DNA of 64,000 nt, taken from a virus. Its lineage: Duplodnaviria > Caudoviricetes. The translations under genes and the position numbers were made by a program. This document shows positions 3,585 through 42,404 of the stretch, piece after piece. The stretch lies in the IMG/VR virus record IMGVR_UViG_3300023047_000002; one strand, given 5' to 3'. The notes under the pieces are model-generated. The model was given only the letters and a program-made list of their open reading frames with translations. It ran no database searches and was not told the DNA's origin. How positions within the stretch are numbered: position 1 is the stretch's first letter; each line of letters opens with the position of its first letter.

Positions 3585-4151
3585 ATGCTTCCTTACAGTA
3601 TCGTTGGTATTGACCCGTCATTCTCCCGAACGGGTCTTTGTTGTGTTATGCAGGATGGATCTAAAAGAGTACTGTTCCATAATATCTCTCATCCGATAAC
3701 AGGAAAAGCATCTGTTGACGGCACTGTAAAACGTGGGTTTCATTCCGTGTTTGAGTCTGCTTTTGCGTTGGCGAACGATGTCACATCTTGGGTTATGTCT
3801 TTTGAGCCTGTACGTGTCGTAATGGAAGAACCTCTACCTGCAAGTTCTATGTCACCTGCGTTGTACTGCTTGGATTCGTTGATTTTTGAGCGTATTAAAG
3901 ACCATGTGTTACAGACGTACAATCCGTCAACTCTGAGGACTATCCATTCAAAACGCGATTACACAAAAACGGACTCTGTGAACAGGGCAACAAAGTTGCT
4001 TGAACGGTTCCATGCTGCCGGTTGGAGTGTTCCGATAGTTTCAAAGACAGGGAAGATCCGTCCGCCATGTCACGATTGCTGTGAAGCATTCTTGTACATC
4101 TGTCATTACCTGAATACACATGAAATGGACTTAAAAACTTTGACTTTCTGA
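3585..4151 (+). CDS. RuvC-like Holliday junction resolvase (RNase H fold)
   Basis: IVGIDPSFSRTG near ATG 3585, VVMEEP, and a C-terminal HDCCEA helix; the longer ORF from 3411 overlaps recA and a palindrome. Confidence 0.75.
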   Translation: MLPYSIVGIDPSFSRTGLCCVMQDGSKRVLFHNISHPITGKASVDGTVKRGFHSVFESAFALANDVTSWVMSFEPVRVVMEEPLPASSMSPALYCLDSLIFERIKDHVLQTYNPSTLRTIHSKRDYTKTDSVNRATKLLERFHAAGWSVPIVSKTGKIRPPCHDCCEAFLYICHYLNTHEMDLKTLTF

Positions 4152-4162
4152 TTTGAGGATCT

Positions 4163-4579
4163 ATGAGTGCTACGTTATACGTCAAGTTTCCTGAAAGTCA
4201 TTACGGCGGTTTTCCATGCTACGTGATGCCAAAACACATTCTGGATTCTGGGTACTGTTCCTGCATTTCTGACGGATGTGTTGAGTTAGGCAACATCACA
4301 GGCAATCTAGTCACGATGTGTCAGCATGTTCCTGTAAGCGAAACGGAATCGTTGTACGATGCGATTTGGCATACTGGCGAACATGGTTACACGACACAAG
4401 ATTTGTTGCGTATGTACACTGAAGCAGATACATTTGTGCTTCTACATAAGGAAATTCTGTCTGAGTATGATGCTGATAATGGATGGGGCACAGTGAGTTC
4501 ACTGCGTAATTTTCTTGGACAATCCATAGAAATCCTAAAGATTTTCGATGGGTTCCCGTGTTGTGTAATTCGTAATTGA
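4163..4579 (+). CDS. hypothetical phage protein
   Basis: GAGGA RBS; contains a YDADNGWG motif. Confidence 0.65.
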   Translation: MSATLYVKFPESHYGGFPCYVMPKHILDSGYCSCISDGCVELGNITGNLVTMCQHVPVSETESLYDAIWHTGEHGYTTQDLLRMYTEADTFVLLHKEILSEYDADNGWGTVSSLRNFLGQSIEILKIFDGFPCCVIRN

Positions 4580-34790: not shown

Positions 34791-35505
34791 GTCCTGCAAA
34801 ACTGATTTAGATTTTTCCGTACAAGAAGTCACTAAAGAACAGTCAACCCTTAGTACGTACCCTAAAGTCATCATAACCTGTCCATCATTTGAAGTGATCA
34901 CACCGTTAGATGGCCTGTATATTTTGAAGTACATTGAAGAAATAGGAAGGACTTGTTATCAGTCTTATCGCAACACGAAAGATGATTCATGTTATGACTT
35001 TGTTCGGATGCTCATCAGACGTGGACATGAATCTATGCTTGAGCACTTTTCCTTTTCTGTTCGATTTGTTGTTGACCGTGCAGTTCAGAACGAGCTCGTC
35101 AGGCATCGGTTGAGTTCATTAGCGGTTGAGTCATCCAGGTATGTTAATTATTCTCTTGAGAAGAACGGAGGCGTGATACGTGTAATTTGTCCACCACAAA
35201 TCAAATATGGTACTGTTGAGTACGACATGTGGGTTGCGTCAATGCAAAAAAGTTCCGACACCTACTTTGAGTTATTGAAAACAACTACACCAGAAATCGC
35301 ACGAAGCGTGCTTCCACTGGCTCTGAAAACGGAGATGGTTATGTCGGCTAACTTACGACAATGGCGTAACGTGTTCAAACTACGATGTGATAATGCAGCA
35401 CATCCACAGATGCGTATGCTTATGCTACCACTGCTTAGCTATGTTAAGAAGCAGATTCCCGTCGTTTTCGATGATCTTGACTACCCGGAAGAGCTTGAAC
35501 TTTAG
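34777..35505 (+). CDS. thyX: flavin-dependent thymidylate synthase
   Basis: GRTCYQS, RRGHESMLEH, ELVRHR...ESSRYVNY, ARSVLP, NLRQWR, AHPQMR. Confidence 0.95.
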   Translation: MTDSKSCKTDLDFSVQEVTKEQSTLSTYPKVIITCPSFEVITPLDGLYILKYIEEIGRTCYQSYRNTKDDSCYDFVRMLIRRGHESMLEHFSFSVRFVVDRAVQNELVRHRLSSLAVESSRYVNYSLEKNGGVIRVICPPQIKYGTVEYDMWVASMQKSSDTYFELLKTTTPEIARSVLPLALKTEMVMSANLRQWRNVFKLRCDNAAHPQMRMLMLPLLSYVKKQIPVVFDDLDYPEELEL

Positions 35506-35538
35506 TCGTACAACGCAACAACCTGTGTTTTGTTTCTG

Positions 35539-35571
35539 AAAAAGAGCCGAAAACCCTCCACGGCTCTTTTT
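35539..35571 (+). terminator. intrinsic terminator, possibly bidirectional
   Basis: AAAAAGAGCCG...CGGCTCTTTTT. Confidence 0.7.
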
Positions 35572-35611
35572 CATTATGCACCACCACAAACCATTCATTG
35601 ATGAGGTGTCT

Positions 35612-37363
35612 ATGAGTAAAGATTGCCTAAGCATTTCAGTCCTGAAAAAGAATAATTCCGTTGTCCCATTTGACGGAGATAAAATAAAATCTGCGATACG
35701 TAAATCTGCTGAACGTGTGAATGTTACTATGACCACAGAACAGGAAGACTTCGTTGTTTCTTATGTTGAAAATCTTTGTCCTGTGAATGAGCCTGTACAG
35801 GTGAAGGCGTTGCATAATTATGTCGAGTGTGCCCTTGATTCAGTGAACACAGAAGTAGCACGCTCTTATCGTGAGTATCGCAATTACAAGACGCAGTTCG
35901 TTAAGATGCTTGATCAGGTATACCGAAAGAAGCTCGAACTTTCAGACAAGCGGGACGCATCGAATGCCAATGCCGATTCTGACCTTATTACAACTCAGAA
36001 AGCAATCGCATACGCTGAATTGAATGGCGAGCTTTACAAACGGTTCTTCCTGACGGACGAGGAAAACAAAGCACAGGAAGACGGGTATATTTACATCCAT
36101 GACAAAGGCGCAAGACTAGATACCACGAATTGTTTCAGTAGGAATACACGCTTTATCACGTCTGCTGGCATCCGTTCGTTCAATGACTTTGTTGACGGTG
36201 ACACGGTGCAGGTGTTATCGCATCGCGGTCTGTGGCGTATTGGGACAGTTCATTGCTTTGGTGAGCAGGAGACTCAGATCGTCACGTTCGTAAATGAGGA
36301 CATGTCTGTAAGGCATACCGTTGAATGCACTCCCAACCATAGGTGGATACTCTCTGACAGTAGCATTACAACTGAGCTTAAAAAGGACGATGTCTTAGTC
36401 AAATCACCATGCGACATAGAGGGCAGGATTACACAGTTTCGTGGCGTTGTTTGGACAGTAGAAGACATTGAGAAAACAGACAGAGTTGAACCCGTATGGT
36501 GTCTTACGGTGGATACGGATCATTCATTCGTTCTTGAATCAGGCATCCCGACTGGCAACTGTTGTTTGTTTGACATGAAATCCCTTTTGAAAGGCGGTTT
36601 TCGTATGGGCAACATAAGTTATCGTGAGCCGAAGACAGCCGGAACAGCATTGTCTCTTATCGCTGATATCGCATTGAATGCAGGTGCAAGTCAGTACGGT
36701 GGTTTCACAATATCGGAGATTGACAAACTGCTTGAGCCGTATGCACATGAATCATACGACCGTTATTATGCTGAGTATGTTGAACTTACTGGTAAAAAAG
36801 ATCCGATGGGTGCAACGATTTATGCGAATAAAAAGTTACGTCAAGAACTTGAAGATGGTGCGATTGCCATTGAATGTAAATGGAATTCATGTTCTACGGC
36901 TCGCGGCGATTATCCCTTCACGTCCATCTCGTTCGGTTTGTCAAGAGACCGTTTAGGTCAAATGGTGACATCGGCTTTTTTAAAGGTTCGTAAAGAAGGT
37001 GCTGGAACCTCTGACCATATTCCCGTTCTGTTCCCCAAACTGACGTTTCTTTATGACGAGGATATGCACGGAGCAGGTAAGGAACAGGAATGGCTTTTCA
37101 AGGAAGCCGTTGAATGCACACAAAGGGCGCAGTATCCTGATTTCCTCTCGATGACAGGCGACGGTTATGCACCTTCGATGTATAAGAAATATGGCGTGTC
37201 TATTAGCCGTATGGGATGTAGAGCCAACCTGTCCCCGTGGTATGAGATGGGTGGTCAGGAACCCGCTGATGACTTGTATGAAATTGAATATGACGATGGT
37301 ACAAAGGAGATTGTTCAAAAAGGCTTCTTGATCGGTGATCAGAAAGTTGAAGATATGGTGTAG
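35612..37363 (+). CDS. nrdD: anaerobic ribonucleotide reductase NrdD, N-terminal fragment (ATP cone, intein, finger-loop Cys)
   Basis: VLKKNNSVVPFDGDKIKSAI (ATP cone), GYIYIHD, N|CCL, QYGG, LFPKL, QYPDF, MGCR; stops after a 29 aa non-NrdD tail. Confidence 0.92.
   Translation: MSKDCLSISVLKKNNSVVPFDGDKIKSAIRKSAERVNVTMTTEQEDFVVSYVENLCPVNEPVQVKALHNYVECALDSVNTEVARSYREYRNYKTQFVKMLDQVYRKKLELSDKRDASNANADSDLITTQKAIAYAELNGELYKRFFLTDEENKAQEDGYIYIHDKGARLDTTNCFSRNTRFITSAGIRSFNDFVDGDTVQVLSHRGLWRIGTVHCFGEQETQIVTFVNEDMSVRHTVECTPNHRWILSDSSITTELKKDDVLVKSPCDIEGRITQFRGVVWTVEDIEKTDRVEPVWCLTVDTDHSFVLESGIPTGNCCLFDMKSLLKGGFRMGNISYREPKTAGTALSLIADIALNAGASQYGGFTISEIDKLLEPYAHESYDRYYAEYVELTGKKDPMGATIYANKKLRQELEDGAIAIECKWNSCSTARGDYPFTSISFGLSRDRLGQMVTSAFLKVRKEGAGTSDHIPVLFPKLTFLYDEDMHGAGKEQEWLFKEAVECTQRAQYPDFLSMTGDGYAPSMYKKYGVSISRMGCRANLSPWYEMGGQEPADDLYEIEYDDGTKEIVQKGFLIGDQKVEDMV
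36131..36559 (+). mobile_element. NrdD mini-intein (143 aa)
   Basis: N|CFSRNTRF...CTPNHRW...VWCLTV...GIPTGN|C. Confidence 0.9.
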
Positions 37364-37375
37364 TCGTGTTAAACT
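37347..37375 (+). promoter_or_regulatory. sigma70-like promoter for the endonuclease gene
   Basis: TTGAAG-N17-TAAACT with a TGn extension, overlapping the nrdD-N stop. Confidence 0.55.
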
Positions 37376-37465
37376 GCAAAAAGGGCTAGGTCGGCCAACC
37401 GAAAAGAAGCCTTATCCACTTCCTGCCCTTTTTCTCTGTGGATAGCGTGTTGAGGATAGAGCACC

Positions 37466-39265
37466 ATGAAATCAAAAAAAGTGTATCCGGAGTGGTTTCT
37501 TGCGGAACTTGCGGATGAAGAAACCAGACATCGTTTTGAGAAAGGGGATTGTAAGGTCTCTGAGTGTGTATATTTCACATGTCCAAACGGTCATCCTGCG
37601 TATAAGCAACTTGTTAAGAATCATATTACATCGTCAGGTACACCAAGGAATAAGTGTCCTGTATGTGCAAAGTTGAATCAAACCACGTTTGTTCCACCTG
37701 ATTGGGTTGTCGAGGACTTAGCGAATGAAACGGAGCGTGAAGCTCTTCGTGGAACTGCGTGCAATTCAAAATCGAAATTTTCTTTCGTCTGTAAGCAGTG
37801 TGGAACTGTTTACGAACAAACTATATGGAATCATTCTATCGGTAAGCGGGTATGTCATGCTTGTGCAAGTAAATGTAGAGGAAAATCTTACAGTGAGACA
37901 ATAGGACAAAGAAGAAAGCCTTATCCAGAATGGTTTGTGAATGAACTGGTTAATGACAGTGACAAAGAGAGGGCATTACGTGGCGATATTACCGGTACGG
38001 AAAATGTTACGTTCAGATGCCTTGCAGGTTTAGAGCATCCGAATTATGTTCAGACTGTTAAGAGTCATATATGTATTTCTACCGGGCATCCTAAAAACGG
38101 ATGCCCCGTGTGTAGGTATATCAAGTCATCAAAAGGCATATCTGAATTTTACAAGGGTGTTAGAAAGGAGTTTCCGCCTGAGCTTTATGACGAGGTTTAT
38201 AAGGATGAGGACAGGGACAAACTGCGCAACCGACAGTTGTCATATAATGAGTCCATTGATTGGGTATGTCAGTCATGTGGTCGTGTTTACAGTCAGATGA
38301 TTAAAGATCACATTCGTGGGAAACGTTGTAACTACTGTGCCGGTAAGATTTCCGATGAGGAGTGCATTCTAAGGGAAATGATCACTCCATATTACAACGG
38401 TGAAATTCTCTACAACACAAGGGATGGGTTTGACGGTTATGAGGTTGACATCTACATACCGGAATACAAGATAGCTATTGAGTATAATGGTTCCTTTTGG
38501 CACAAATCGCTTCCGAGTGGCTTTGCATCCAGAGACCGTCTGTACCACCTTCACAAATTCGAGCTGTGCCAACGCAAAGGGATAAGGCTTTTAAGCATTT
38601 TTGACGTTGACCTGTTATTTAGGAAGGAAATCTTATCGAGGTTTTTTATGGACTTGTTTGTGCCTAAAAAGGTCTTGTATGCAAGAAAGTGCCGTGTGGA
38701 ATGTATTAGCTCCTCTATGGCTAATTCTATGTATGCACAGCATCATTTACTTGGAAGCACTCCAAATTTGTCCGTGTCTTATGGGTTGTTCCATGAGGGC
38801 GAACTCGTGTCCTGTATGTCTTTTCAAAAGGGAAGGTATAAAGTTTCAGGTCATCCAGTGTGGTGTTTGACTCGGTTTGTCACGAAGTCCGGCATCTCTG
38901 TTATTGGCGGAGCGTCAAAACTCTTGTGTCAGTTCGAGCAGGCATATAGTCCATCGTGTATAGTGTCTTACTCTGATAATGATTTCTTTCAAGGTGGCGT
39001 ATATGAGAAACTTGGATTCACTTGCCTCGGCGTTACAAAGACACCAAGGTATTACTGGTTTTTGCATGGTTTGGAATATAGCCGGGAACAGTGTCAGCTT
39101 AAAAATTTATCTAAAAATTACCCTGATTTGTTTGAGGAAGCAAAGAGTATACATGGGAATAAAGAAGACTTTATTATGCTTAGATTAGGTGCATTTAAAG
39201 TCTTTCGTTCGGGGCATACAAAGTGGGTTAAACACTATGAGGGAGAAATTTATGAAAAAGGTTAA
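37466..39265 (+). mobile_element. free-standing homing endonuclease (Zn-ribbon repeats + Vsr/Hef-like nuclease) inserted in nrdD
   Basis: Repeated YPEWF...C..H/CxxC units, EVDIYIPEYKIAIEYNGSFWH, C-terminal YARKC...GGASKLL...SYSD...YEKLGF. Confidence 0.8.
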
Positions 39266-40190
39266 AGCGGTAAGAAAGTTCGCGGATAACCCTGTTTACG
39301 AAGGGAGACTTAATTGTGGCGCGATTTCACTTAATTTCCCGATGATTGTGAAAAAAGCACAGGATGAGGGCAATGATTTCTATGAGGTTTTGACATATTA
39401 CCTTGACCTGTGCCGTAAAATCCATATCCGAACATTGGAATACCTTGCACATAAAAAGGCTGGCATCAATCCGTTAGGTTTCTGCGAGGGCGGTTTCTAT
39501 GGCGGTCACTTCAAAGAGAATGAGGAAATCGGTCGTGAGTTTTTCAGACCTATGACGGTTTCATTCGGCATCGCCGCCTTGAATGAAGCAACGGTGATGT
39601 ACAAGGGTAAATCGTTATATGAAGATAAAGCGCAGTTTGCCGAAGAAGTTTTGCGTTTTATTAACGATTACGCAAATAAATACAAAAAAGAGGACGGAAT
39701 CCTGTATGCGATTTATGGTACGCCCGGAGAGTCGATGTGCTCATTACAGGTAGAGCAGTTCCGAAAGAAGTATGGCATGATTAAGGGAGTGTCAGACCGT
39801 AAGTATATGTCCAATTCTTTCCATGTTCATGTTTCTGAGGATATCACGCCTGTGGATAAGATGGATACAGAGTACAAATGCTTCCATTTGTGCAACGGTG
39901 GTAACATCATCTACAACAGATTCGGATCTGATTATAACACAAAAGCCTACGTGACGCTTATTCGGGAAGCAATGAAACGTGGGTATTATTACGGGTGCAA
40001 CATCAGCAAGAATTACTGCTGTACATGTGGAGCAGAGTTTTTGGATGAAGACAAGTGCCCGTCCTGTGGAAGTGATGATTTGGTTCGTATTTCAAGGGTG
40101 TGTGGATACCTTGGCCTTGAACGTGTGCACGGCGACACCCGAATGAACGGAGGCAAACGTGCTGAAATAGACGACAGAAAGTGCATGTGA
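39252..40190 (+). CDS. nrdD: NrdD C-terminal fragment with the glycyl radical motif
   Basis: Own RBS (GAGGGAG) and ATG; GRLNCGAISLN, YGTPGES, SNSFH, NGG, CCTC..CPSC, RVCGYL. Confidence 0.92.
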   Translation: MKKVKAVRKFADNPVYEGRLNCGAISLNFPMIVKKAQDEGNDFYEVLTYYLDLCRKIHIRTLEYLAHKKAGINPLGFCEGGFYGGHFKENEEIGREFFRPMTVSFGIAALNEATVMYKGKSLYEDKAQFAEEVLRFINDYANKYKKEDGILYAIYGTPGESMCSLQVEQFRKKYGMIKGVSDRKYMSNSFHVHVSEDITPVDKMDTEYKCFHLCNGGNIIYNRFGSDYNTKAYVTLIREAMKRGYYYGCNISKNYCCTCGAEFLDEDKCPSCGSDDLVRISRVCGYLGLERVHGDTRMNGGKRAEIDDRKCM

Positions 40191-40191
40191 G

Positions 40192-40231
40192 TGGTGCTGG
40201 TATCCGAAATCTAACCTTTATGTGGTATAAG
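40192..40231 (+). promoter_or_regulatory. TGGTGCT-N27-TATAAG promoter
   Basis: Fixed-spacing motif immediately after the nrdD-C stop. Confidence 0.7.
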
Positions 40232-40297
40232 AACCAGTGAGAAGCATAGTTGCTTCTCACTGGGTAATAAGCAGATTTGTGTAATGGAGAATTGGTT

Positions 40298-41107
40298 ATG
40301 TTAATCAAACATCATACGAACGAAGTAAAATCGTGGCAGGTAAAGCAACTTAAGGATGCTGTGCAAGGTAAAAGTTCTCTTGTTCGGTCGTGGGGTATTA
40401 TGACTTCCGAGAACCCTATGGGCAAATCCATGAAACGTGCCGTCAACAGAAATCTTGTCATTCAATGTAAACAGGCTTTGAAGCAGCGTGGACTGGAATA
40501 CATTCCTGTCAAGGGACGATATGGCGGAGATGAGAACTCATTGTTTGTCATTAACCCTCTTCTCAAGGACATGATGGAACTATCCAGGCAGTTCGACCAA
40601 GAGTCCTTCATCTTTGTCACCTGTGATGACGGCGGATGCGACATGGGATACTATGAAAAGGGGCAGGGCGATTCACCGTACATCTTGAAACATTCACGTA
40701 ACCAGGTGGTCGGAATGGACGATGCCGAGGACTTCTTTACGTCTGTCAAGGCACGCTCAAAACGAGCCTTCAAGTTTCAGATTCCTTTCTTTGATGGTCA
40801 GGACGACACGGCTATATCCTCAGAAAGCATCGTCCGTACATTGGAGCATTATGTCATAGAACGTTATGGTTATCAGGGCATTGTGTCGCTGTCTGAACGT
40901 ATCAACGAGACCTTCTCAAGGAATATCACGGAACGTCATAGGCATTCTTTACGTTCAATGATTTACGAAACACGTAGTGCACGGGTACGCCGTCTTGAGT
41001 CTTGTATCAGGTCTCTTGAGTCCGTTGTTGTTTCTCAGGGAGCATCACGTGAGATTGAACGTTCCATACAAGTTATTCGAGAGGAACTTGAAAGTATTCG
41101 CCGTTAA
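40298..41107 (+). CDS. conserved-looking phage hypothetical protein (DUF3293-like)
   Basis: IMTSENP, VKGRYG, ENSLFV, FDQESFIF pattern. Confidence 0.6.
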   Translation: MLIKHHTNEVKSWQVKQLKDAVQGKSSLVRSWGIMTSENPMGKSMKRAVNRNLVIQCKQALKQRGLEYIPVKGRYGGDENSLFVINPLLKDMMELSRQFDQESFIFVTCDDGGCDMGYYEKGQGDSPYILKHSRNQVVGMDDAEDFFTSVKARSKRAFKFQIPFFDGQDDTAISSESIVRTLEHYVIERYGYQGIVSLSERINETFSRNITERHRHSLRSMIYETRSARVRRLESCIRSLESVVVSQGASREIERSIQVIREELESIRR

Positions 41108-41133
41108 GTTACGGTGAGATTGGAGAACACCTT

Positions 41134-41649
41134 ATGAATTACTCAGGCTTAAAGTATTGTGACATGGTGAATGGCGAAGGTCTTAGAACCGTCCTGTTTG
41201 TAAGTGGGTGTTCCCACAAATGCCCTTCATGTCACAACCCTCAGACACATGACCCTTGTTACGGTCAGCCGTTTTCCCTAGGAACCATGCAGGATATTAT
41301 GGATTCTCTTCGTATGGAGTTTTGCTCAGGACTGACCTTGTCTGGCGGTGACCCATTATATCCTGACAATCGTGAAGAGGTGATGCATATCGTTGAAACT
41401 GTCAAAGGTGAGTTCGGAGATGAAAAGACGATATGGCTTTACACAGGTTATACGTATGGTGAACTTAAAAAGCAGATTGAGGACGGAGATGTAATGCTTA
41501 GTCGTATTCTTTATTGTGTGGATGTGTTGGTTGACGGCCCGTTCATTCTGTCAAGAAAACGACAAGGTCTTCTTTGGAGAGGTTCTGATAATCAATGTCT
41601 GCTTCGCCTTAAGTACGGAGAAGTTGTTTCGGAAGTAGTTGAGTCATGA
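41134..41649 (+). CDS. nrdG: anaerobic RNR activating enzyme (radical SAM)
   Basis: DMVNGEGLRTVLFVSGCSHKCPSCHNP, LSGGDP, YTGY, DVLVDGPF, RGSDNQ. Confidence 0.96.
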   Translation: MNYSGLKYCDMVNGEGLRTVLFVSGCSHKCPSCHNPQTHDPCYGQPFSLGTMQDIMDSLRMEFCSGLTLSGGDPLYPDNREEVMHIVETVKGEFGDEKTIWLYTGYTYGELKKQIEDGDVMLSRILYCVDVLVDGPFILSRKRQGLLWRGSDNQCLLRLKYGEVVSEVVES

Positions 41650-42404
41650 CATGGAATTACAGTGTGTTCGATACGGTTGACAAGCCTACGGTCAAAGAGC
41701 TTCAGGAGCAGTATATCAGGGATGGTCTTGATTCCTCCAGTGCATTCAGCATGGCATGTTCCGAGTATGAAAAGAATACATATAAGACTGATAGAGTGTT
41801 GCATAAGATTTCAGATGATGAGTTGAAATCAATACCCAAAGAATTCAAGGACAAACCTTCTGGGGTGGGTAGGTATTTTTGGCGTGCTCCGTCTTTTCAG
41901 TATTTGGAAATTGCGAGCTGCGAAGGCGACGATCCAATGATTAATTATGTACAGCTTCTTCTTGGAAATCTCAAACCGGGAGACCTCTTACCTGTCCGTA
42001 TGATTCCGAAGAAGCCGTTTGGCTATGAAATGGAGTTTCTTACGTTTGTGAAGTACAAGCATACGTTTCCGACAAACCGTCGTTATATCCACTCTGAAAC
42101 GTTGACGTTCACGGACAGTTATGGAAAGAAGGCATACTTTAAAGGTATGCCGACTTACGTTTTTCGAGACAAGCTATGGGATACCGTTCGGAGGATTGCG
42201 GACATATTGAGTTTCTGGAACTCGTGCCGTAACTCGAATAATGAGGAGTTGTTCGGAGATTTGTTCAACATCATCCGTAGGGAAAAGTGCCTGTCTTGGA
42301 CACGGGAGTATGGTTTACAGTACCATCAGGACTTCGAACGTTATTCATCTGTTATAGAAGAACCTGTATGTCGCCTTCGTACTTTCTCATTAGGAGCCTT
42401 ATGA
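41646..42404 (+). CDS. hypothetical protein
   Basis: ATGA overlap with nrdG. Confidence 0.7.
   Translation: MTWNYSVFDTVDKPTVKELQEQYIRDGLDSSSAFSMACSEYEKNTYKTDRVLHKISDDELKSIPKEFKDKPSGVGRYFWRAPSFQYLEIASCEGDDPMINYVQLLLGNLKPGDLLPVRMIPKKPFGYEMEFLTFVKYKHTFPTNRRYIHSETLTFTDSYGKKAYFKGMPTYVFRDKLWDTVRRIADILSFWNSCRNSNNEELFGDLFNIIRREKCLSWTREYGLQYHQDFERYSSVIEEPVCRLRTFSLGAL

Follow-up and report, generated by a model that had tools for sequence, protein, structure and literature searches.

A Hef-like endonuclease cassette splits the class III ribonucleotide reductase gene nrdD of a large gut phage and adds oppositely charged tails to its two halves

In a 64,000-nt stretch of DNA from a large gut phage (Caudoviricetes; IMG/VR record IMGVR_UViG_3300023047_000002), hereafter called the window and used as the reference for all positions given here, the nrdD gene for class III ribonucleotide reductase (RNR) is split into two open reading frames (ORFs) by a free-standing homing endonuclease gene. 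Examination of the locus and its relatives confirmed that the split is a real feature. The gene anatomy, the lack of splicing signatures, the joint carriage of the endonuclease gene and two short protein tails, the mobility of this cassette and the selection acting on the locus make it likely that the phage has a two-chain class III RNR, created by insertion of the cassette and reassembled non-covalently. Docking of the chains would be assisted by the tails, which may also be necessary for activity.

The locus comprises three ORFs (35576/35612–37363, 37466–39265 and 39252–40190), which, like the mini-intein, tails, leader, divergent patch and nrdG described below, lie on the plus strand. The first of them, nrdD-N (35612–37363, with an alternative upstream ATG at 35576), encodes the ATP-cone, the first half of the 10-stranded barrel, the finger loop and a tail of 29 aa, and it matches the Pfam ATP-cone domain and positions 53–270 of the NRDD profile. 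The last, nrdD-C (from the ATG at 39252 to 40190), matches NRDD positions 268–560 as well as Gly_radical, and encodes the second half-barrel, the Asn of the GRLN motif, a Zn ribbon (cysteine codons at 40017 and 40056) and the glycyl-radical motif. The codon for the radical Cys (37217) is thus found on the N chain and that for the Gly of RVCGYL (40104) on the C chain. In an alignment with T4 NrdD (1H78), the N chain covers residues 189–307, including Cys290, and the C chain residues 301–598; nrdD-N was also aligned to intact NrdD homologs. The break is located 10 residues past the finger-loop radical Cys, and the junction reads EPADD^...^ADNPVY as compared with EPADD-NDRPVY in intact homologs, so that not a single host residue has been lost or duplicated.

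Together, the ATP-cone, the finger-loop Cys, the active-site Asn, the Zn ribbon, the glycyl motif and the adjacent activase gene nrdG identify the product as a class III RNR, and the distribution of one conserved gene over two adjacent ORFs, with an intact gene in a close relative (L010), identifies the locus as an intein-less fractured gene. The C half appears equipped for its own translation, with the Shine-Dalgarno sequence GAGGGAG 7 nt ahead of the ATG at 39252; both signals are kept in both split lineages. The endonuclease ORF overlaps the start of nrdD-C by 14 nt, and only 102 nt at the break (37364–37465) are non-coding. No TGGTGCT promoter motif was found on the plus strand between 32478 and 40192, which is consistent with co-transcription of the nrdD halves. 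An earlier description of the locus, made by a model from the sequence alone and referred to here as the first-pass annotation, had reported this ORF layout with its coordinates, the two catalytic codons on separate ORFs, a non-coding gap of about 100 nt, the ORF overlap and the separate ribosome-binding site of nrdD-C, and all of this held up.

The relative L010, which is approximately 90% identical to the window at the nucleotide level and has the same gene order (DnaB, ThyX, nrdD, DUF3293, nrdG), contains an intact nrdD with the same mini-intein as the window gene, no tails and no endonuclease gene. The difference between the two corresponds exactly to positions 37274–39281 of the window (2008 bp), and hence the tails and the endonuclease gene come or go together. 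This agrees with the proposal in the first-pass annotation that the tails are carried by the endonuclease cassette. The split arrangement recurs in relatives at 95% and at 64–69% identity.

As judged from sequence divergence, the cassette is mobile. When the window is compared with the split relatives L014 and L009, synonymous divergence (dS) of the endonuclease gene is 0.10–0.17 (ratio of nonsynonymous to synonymous divergence, omega, 0.12), far below the values for the host gene, which are 0.50 for nrdD-N and 0.88–0.97 for nrdD-C. The tract of high similarity includes both tails and around 400 nt of 3′ flank, and identical N-tails are found on nrdD alleles that are just 76–84% identical. Directly 3′ of the insertion lies a hyper-divergent patch (39282–39340), a candidate for the target or immunity region of the endonuclease or for a co-conversion tract. 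Compared with the intact allele of L010, the patch is identical at 35 of 60 nt (58%) against about 54 of 60 (90%) elsewhere, and it is common to other endonuclease-positive alleles at 27–30 of 30 positions. In sequence terms, this is the pattern expected of intron-less homing with co-conversion or target-site immunity. A megablast search with the region against the phage collection returned no match.

The N-tail (29 aa, 37274–37360) has a net charge of −5 and a pI of 4.1 and, as read from the sequence, consists of a hairpin motif, YEIEY-DG-KE, followed by an IGD strand and the stop codon. The C-tail (10 aa, MKKVKAVRKF, 39252–39281) has a net charge of +5 and a pI of 11.3. Our recalculation of lengths and charges gave the values reported in the first-pass annotation. 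Extensions of opposite charge (−5/+5) are thus present at a junction where intact homologs have none: 165 of the 166 homologs spanning the site have an 11-residue loop without tails. The charges persist in every variant, the dnaE tails described below included, with −3 to −5 for the N-tail and +3 to +5 for the C-tail. A six-frame motif scan revealed no other copies of the tails in the window. The cores of both tails are under purifying selection, with a conserved protein and saturated synonymous sites. Between the window and the split relative L011, the proportions of nonsynonymous (pN) and synonymous (pS) differences are 0.17 and 0.72 for the first 16 codons of the N-tail and 0.14 and 0.82 for the C-tail, which is conserved in the lineage of L011 and L005. 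For the remainder of the N-tail pN is 0.43, and pS is saturated.

The one homolog that does contain the tails, on the JGI metagenomic contig L004, has them fused in cis as a 33-aa in-frame insertion without an endonuclease gene. The first-pass annotation had regarded intact homologs with the tail residues as an argument against a cassette origin; such a homolog does exist (1 of 166), but it is equally well explained by loss of the endonuclease gene. L004 could represent either the ancestral insertion or, given its rarity, the product of such a loss. An AlphaFold2 model of this natural fusion had a mean predicted local distance difference test (pLDDT) score of 86 and contained strands at residues 20–24 and 30–34, corresponding to the N-tail, a helix at 35–40, a linker, and a strand at 47–52, corresponding to the C-tail. 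Confidence was lowest in block 41–50 (pLDDT 62), which spans the linker, i.e. the place taken by the endonuclease in the split genes, and the rest of the model superposed on solved NrdD structures. On the basis of this model, the N-tail hairpin and the C-tail strand may pair with each other.

A search for the same tail pair in other genes had been suggested in the first-pass annotation, and it did produce a very similar pair. We scanned metagenomes with a degenerate DNA pattern for the N-tail hairpin, the C-tail being outside the search pattern, and obtained nine contigs on which dnaE, encoding the DNA polymerase III alpha subunit, is split at position 100/101 of the DNA_pol3_alpha profile, just before PDxDxDF. 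At the end of the N half of dnaE, the same hairpin is followed by an insertion of 14 aa, an IGD or VGD strand and a stop, and the first residues of the C half are MKKIKNIKIV or closely similar, with 6 of 10 positions like those of the nrdD C-tail and the rest conservative. On eight of the nine contigs there is no endonuclease gene, and in four of these the stop and start overlap. On the contig L063, a 267-aa endonuclease of the phrog_559 type lies exactly between the dnaE tails, bounded by a 5-nt repeat. Applied to IMG/VR and GTDB genomes, the degenerate N-tail pattern yielded generic hairpins in unrelated proteins and nothing else. Taken together, the position, the C-tail, the charge and the endonuclease family make it probable that the tails of dnaE and nrdD are homologous. 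The split dnaE of L063 also has a 385-nt ORF-less insertion (3799–4183) in the catalytic motif, PDV^DTDF, which has no Rfam match and may be a small intron.

The closest known system is the NrdA-a/mobE/NrdA-b locus of phage Aeh1 (Friedrich 2007; Crona 2011), where oppositely charged tails made by mobE are essential for activity (PMC3045599). As in nrdD, the catalytic subunit of an RNR is split by a free-standing endonuclease gene just past the finger-loop Cys, between adjacent strands of the barrel, and neither intron nor intein is involved. Both loci also have an endonuclease ORF that runs into the downstream half, an RNA structure ahead of the endonuclease gene, and oppositely charged tails that are missing from intact homologs. 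The two systems differ in the enzyme, which is a class III glycyl-radical enzyme here and class Ia in Aeh1, in the endonuclease, which is Hef-like with zinc fingers and weakly Vsr-like here whereas MobE is an HNH enzyme, and in polarity, the N half being acidic and the C half basic in our case. Moreover, the nrdD tails are conserved across diverged lineages, occur in one cis fusion and seemingly also in a second host gene. The role of the Aeh1 tails, on the other hand, has been demonstrated biochemically, while that of the nrdD tails is predicted from sequence. The first-pass annotation correctly named Aeh1 as the precedent for non-covalent assembly, but understated it, as essential tails of opposite charge derived from the homing endonuclease gene (HEG) had already been demonstrated there (PMC3045599).

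We propose the following course of events. The Hef-like cassette would have inserted in frame into a surface loop, 10 residues past the finger-loop Cys, where the two five-stranded half-barrels of the RNR meet. It would provide the upstream half with a 29-aa acidic extension and a stop codon, and the downstream half with signals for translation initiation (Shine-Dalgarno sequence and ATG) along with a basic extension of 10 aa, while its leader RNA probably throttles translation of the endonuclease. NrdD would then be made as two separately translated chains, without RNA or protein splicing at the break, and these would come together non-covalently by way of the native barrel interface. A small β-sheet, steered electrostatically, would most likely be completed by the hairpin of the N-tail together with the strand of the C-tail and would aid assembly in a manner comparable to the mobE tails of Aeh1 NrdA. 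The cassette itself would spread by intron-less homing into tail-less nrdD alleles, dragging flanking sequence along. A similar overall interpretation, with a non-splicing electrostatic clasp, was offered by the first-pass annotation, and it gains from the lack of a splicing element, the mobility of the cassette, the selection, the likeness of the N-tail to N-terminal intein fragments (IntN) and the dnaE pair; its docking part draws on inference and on the analogy with Aeh1.

Several points weigh against this scenario. In Aeh1, the tails are needed for dimerisation of the heterodimers and not for association of the halves, and a clasp might thus be the wrong picture (PMC3045599). The dnaE genes were found by a motif-based search, so the similarity of their N-tails is partly ascertained, and the hairpin motif on its own is common in unrelated proteins. 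In L004 the tails form an ordinary in-frame insertion, making a history possible in which the insert came first. Finally, the Rfam search for introns was also blank for the HNH insertions in two other nrdD genes (L020 and L022), and its negative outcome at the break is therefore not decisive.

One alternative is that the tails do nothing beyond supplying stop and start signals. If they were tolerated leftovers, the chains would assemble via the native barrel interface alone, and both the ability of the Aeh1 halves to associate without tails and the poor conservation of the second half of the N-tail, along with the commonness of the hairpin as a structural element, would fit. We regard this as rather unlikely, because conservation of the C-tail and of the first 16 residues of the N-tail equals or exceeds that of NrdD itself against a background of saturated synonymous sites, because charge complementarity is seen in every variant, including dnaE, and because the tails persist both in dnaE alleles that have lost the endonuclease gene and in the cis form of L004.

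It is more improbable still that the break is an endonuclease-bearing group I intron whose removal from the mRNA, with splice sites at the host junction or within the sequence coding for the tails, restores a continuous NrdD. Hef-like endonucleases can be intron-borne, as in the AR9 RNA polymerase gene, which has one beside a group I core; the blank results with L020 and L022 weaken the negative searches, and L004 would be the intron-less allele if an intron sat between the tails. However, Rfam detected no group I or group II intron at E ≤ 10 over positions 35000–42000, nor any Intron_gpI match at the same threshold in L011, L014 and L005, while the positive control, the AR9 core beside its Hef-like endonuclease gene, scored 86.7 bits. 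There is also too little space for an intron, with just 102 nt of non-coding sequence and an endonuclease ORF that runs into the start of nrdD-C. In L011 the halves are about 4 kb apart and the gap holds four ORFs, three of which are extra ORFs between nrdD-N and the endonuclease gene. The conserved Shine-Dalgarno sequence and ATG ahead of the C-tail and the protein-level selection on the tails argue against splicing as well. The claim of the first-pass annotation that no intron is present is thus supported by the lack of a covariance-model match next to a positive control, within the limit set by L020 and L022. The intron of T4 nrdD was considered as a homologous site and rejected, as it is located after about residue 175, elsewhere in the gene.

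We likewise consider it very unlikely that the split nrdD is a decaying pseudogene and that the phage relies on the host or on other ribonucleotide reductases. The gene is heavily parasitised, L014 having as many as three inteins in addition to the cassette, and this could be taken as a sign of decay, but by the substitution ratios both halves are under strong purifying selection in the split genomes. Between split genomes, the N half has an omega of 0.10 and the C half one of 0.04, and the values relative to the intact allele (0.065 and 0.054, respectively) match these. In addition, the catalytic motifs, the Zn ribbon and nrdG have all been retained, and the arrangement is conserved across lineages at 64–69% protein identity.

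Scarcely credible, lastly, is ligation of the chains by trans-splicing through tails that are halves of an atypically split intein: the N-tail does have the size and shape of the short IntN found beside the same endonuclease family (L149 TerL and L127 dnaE), a natural IntN of 15 aa is documented (PMC10189870) and the fractured-gene layout is typical of split inteins (PMC2677866), but the tails total 39 aa as compared with around 120 aa or more, too small for a HINT fold, with Leu at position 1, Phe or Val as the last residue of the C-tail in place of a terminal (His-)Asn, a +1 residue that is Ala, Val, Ser or Asp depending on lineage, and no block B or F, whereas the genuine inteins of nrdD are readily identified as such. 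The first-pass annotation had already pointed to the missing catalytic residues, and it had also noted the intein-like look of the tails.

With respect to this resemblance, we inspected the flanks of 80 Hef-like endonuclease loci in IMG/VR. Most of these are intergenic, often after a tail-sheath gene, and tail-like or IntN-like ends were seen in L127 and L149 only. In L149 (3–4730), TerL has a LAGLIDADG intein and, at its C-terminus, a 30-aa short IntN with Cys1, followed by two tandem Hef-like endonuclease genes. In L127 (344–3481 of a 329-kb IMG/VR contig), dnaE is broken into three or more pieces, one of which starts with a canonical 27-aa C-terminal intein fragment (IntC) ending VVVHN|S and ends with a short IntN-like tail with Cys1, after which comes a Hef-like endonuclease gene; the same hairpin motif is present nine residues after Cys1. 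Natural split inteins with a short IntN (15 aa) have been documented (PMC10189870). Atypically split inteins of the TerL type and PolB16 OarG have an N fragment of 15–37 aa that ends soon after the first hairpin, and such fragments, with Cys1, are located directly upstream of Hef-like genes in L149 and L127. These inteins possess a long catalytic IntC (100–170 aa) and a nucleophile at both position 1 and position +1, whereas the nrdD system has a C-tail of 10 aa and no nucleophiles. From these comparisons, it is plausible that the tails were derived from a short-IntN split intein by loss of its catalytic parts.

More tentatively, the tail pair could be an intein-descended, portable, non-catalytic docking module that travels with Hef-like endonucleases, and would then be a third way, besides introns and inteins, of neutralising their insertion. 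Its hosts would be nrdD, dnaE and possibly the SbcD-like gene of Dassa 2009, and it could outlive the endonuclease, leaving permanently split genes behind. The consensus of the proposed module is an acidic hairpin, YEIEY-DG-KE...IGD, and a basic strand, MKK-hydrophobic-K-x-hydrophobic-K/R.

Dassa 2009 described fractured genes with split inteins, Vsr-like or GIY-YIG endonucleases and regulatory hairpins upstream of the endonuclease genes (PMC2677866). The layout is that of nrdD, namely the host N part with its extension, a hairpin, and a free-standing endonuclease gene overlapping the start of the second extension and the host C part. Most of these loci, however, have catalytically complete split inteins, whereas the nrdD tails have neither the catalytic residues nor most of the HINT fold, and nrdD is not among the hosts reported there. 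One intein-less, SbcD-like locus in the same study has extensions of 25 aa and 9 aa (PMC2677866), close to the 29 aa and 10 aa of nrdD, the likeness being one of length and layout. The T4 topoisomerase gene, split into gp39 and gp60 by mobA, is a further case of an essential phage gene split by an endonuclease gene. Of 104 genomes of gut Jug phages, 95 have a fragmented nrdD, with no mRNA splicing seen at one of the junctions (PMC12880540); in contrast to our locus, no conserved tail pair is described for them and many of the breaks are group I introns (PMC12880540). The concept of tails brought by an endonuclease gene is thus already established for Aeh1 NrdA/mobE, and an intein-less fractured gene for SbcD in Dassa 2009. 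New in our case are the class III host enzyme, the conserved mobile cassette of tails plus endonuclease, the natural cis form and the probable second host gene.

The endonuclease (599 aa, 37466–39265) is free-standing and contains four treble-clef zinc-finger modules. Along its entire length it matches phrog_559 (E 1e-80), and in Pfam it matches DUF4379 (treble-clef zinc fingers), with weak matches to Vsr, where the motif match is below threshold (E 0.017), and to Mom; the nuclease core is weakly Vsr-like and the C-terminal domain weakly Mom/GNAT-like. In tblastn searches, it matched annotated Hef-like HEGs of Campylobacter phages, phiR1-37 and AR9. By these sequence features, and by the low dS of its gene, it is a Hef-like, weakly Vsr-like homing endonuclease. 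No second copy was found in the window by tblastn. Many Hef-like endonuclease genes in the IMG/VR set L085–L164 are located just 3′ of T4-type tail-sheath genes, which suggests that this position is a favoured intergenic homing site.

The 102-nt leader of the endonuclease gene (37364–37465) includes a structured RNA at 37379–37447 that matches int-alpA (RF02996) in Rfam with 40.4 bits, against a gathering score of 35.8, and the match recurs in L014 (8308–8376). The fold is no more stable than that of shuffled sequence (z −0.5), and the end of nrdD-N can pair with the region of the endonuclease start codon. The leader fits the known habit of translational hairpins ahead of free-standing endonuclease genes. 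Read-through from nrdD-N into the endonuclease ORF was also considered; the two share a frame, but four in-frame stops intervene.

In addition to the cassette, nrdD-N contains a 143-aa mini-intein (36131–36559), overlooked in the first-pass annotation, which interrupts the conserved active-site motif N|CC. Cys1 and a block B reading TPNH are present, the end is GN|C with no penultimate His, and the match to Pfam Intein_splicing is below threshold (E 0.0066). The segment is missing from the intact homologs L002 and L003 in alignment, as well as from the NrdD of Ounavirinae and the P0131 lineage. In the 292-kb relative L014 (6001–12061), nrdD has three inteins plus the endonuclease cassette: the N|CC mini-intein, one of 176 aa at the radical Cys (MG^C) and an HNH intein of 314 aa at YGTPGESM^C. 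The phage-like nrdD genes of L020 (4100–5000) and L022 (5255–6086) have insertions of approximately 850 nt with small HNH ORFs, exactly at MG^C and YEGR^(F)N, and the Rfam intron search of these interrupted genes gave no match. Downstream of nrdD in the window, a TGGTGCT motif is present at 40192, directly after the stop codon, followed by a conserved DUF3293 gene (40277–41107) between nrdD-C and nrdG. The nrdG activase gene (41134–41649), with which the RNR system is complete, matches Pfam Fer4_12 and Radical_SAM, and both genes are syntenic in L009 and L010.

If our proposal is correct, the phage enzyme would be the first class III ribonucleotide reductase composed of two chains. With the thiyl-radical Cys and the glycyl-radical site on different polypeptides, it would offer a natural system for radical transfer across a subunit seam. 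The idea of tails as an antidote to insertion, so far confined to the one phage Aeh1, would also be extended to a mobile cassette that is conserved. The parallel with dnaE suggests that the tails are a reusable module and not an accident of one insertion, and such a module would bear on the origin of split inteins and gene fissions and could supply small, natural, non-covalent tags for protein complementation. For annotation, the implication is that a fragmented nrdD in a large gut phage need not be a pseudogene or contain an intron.

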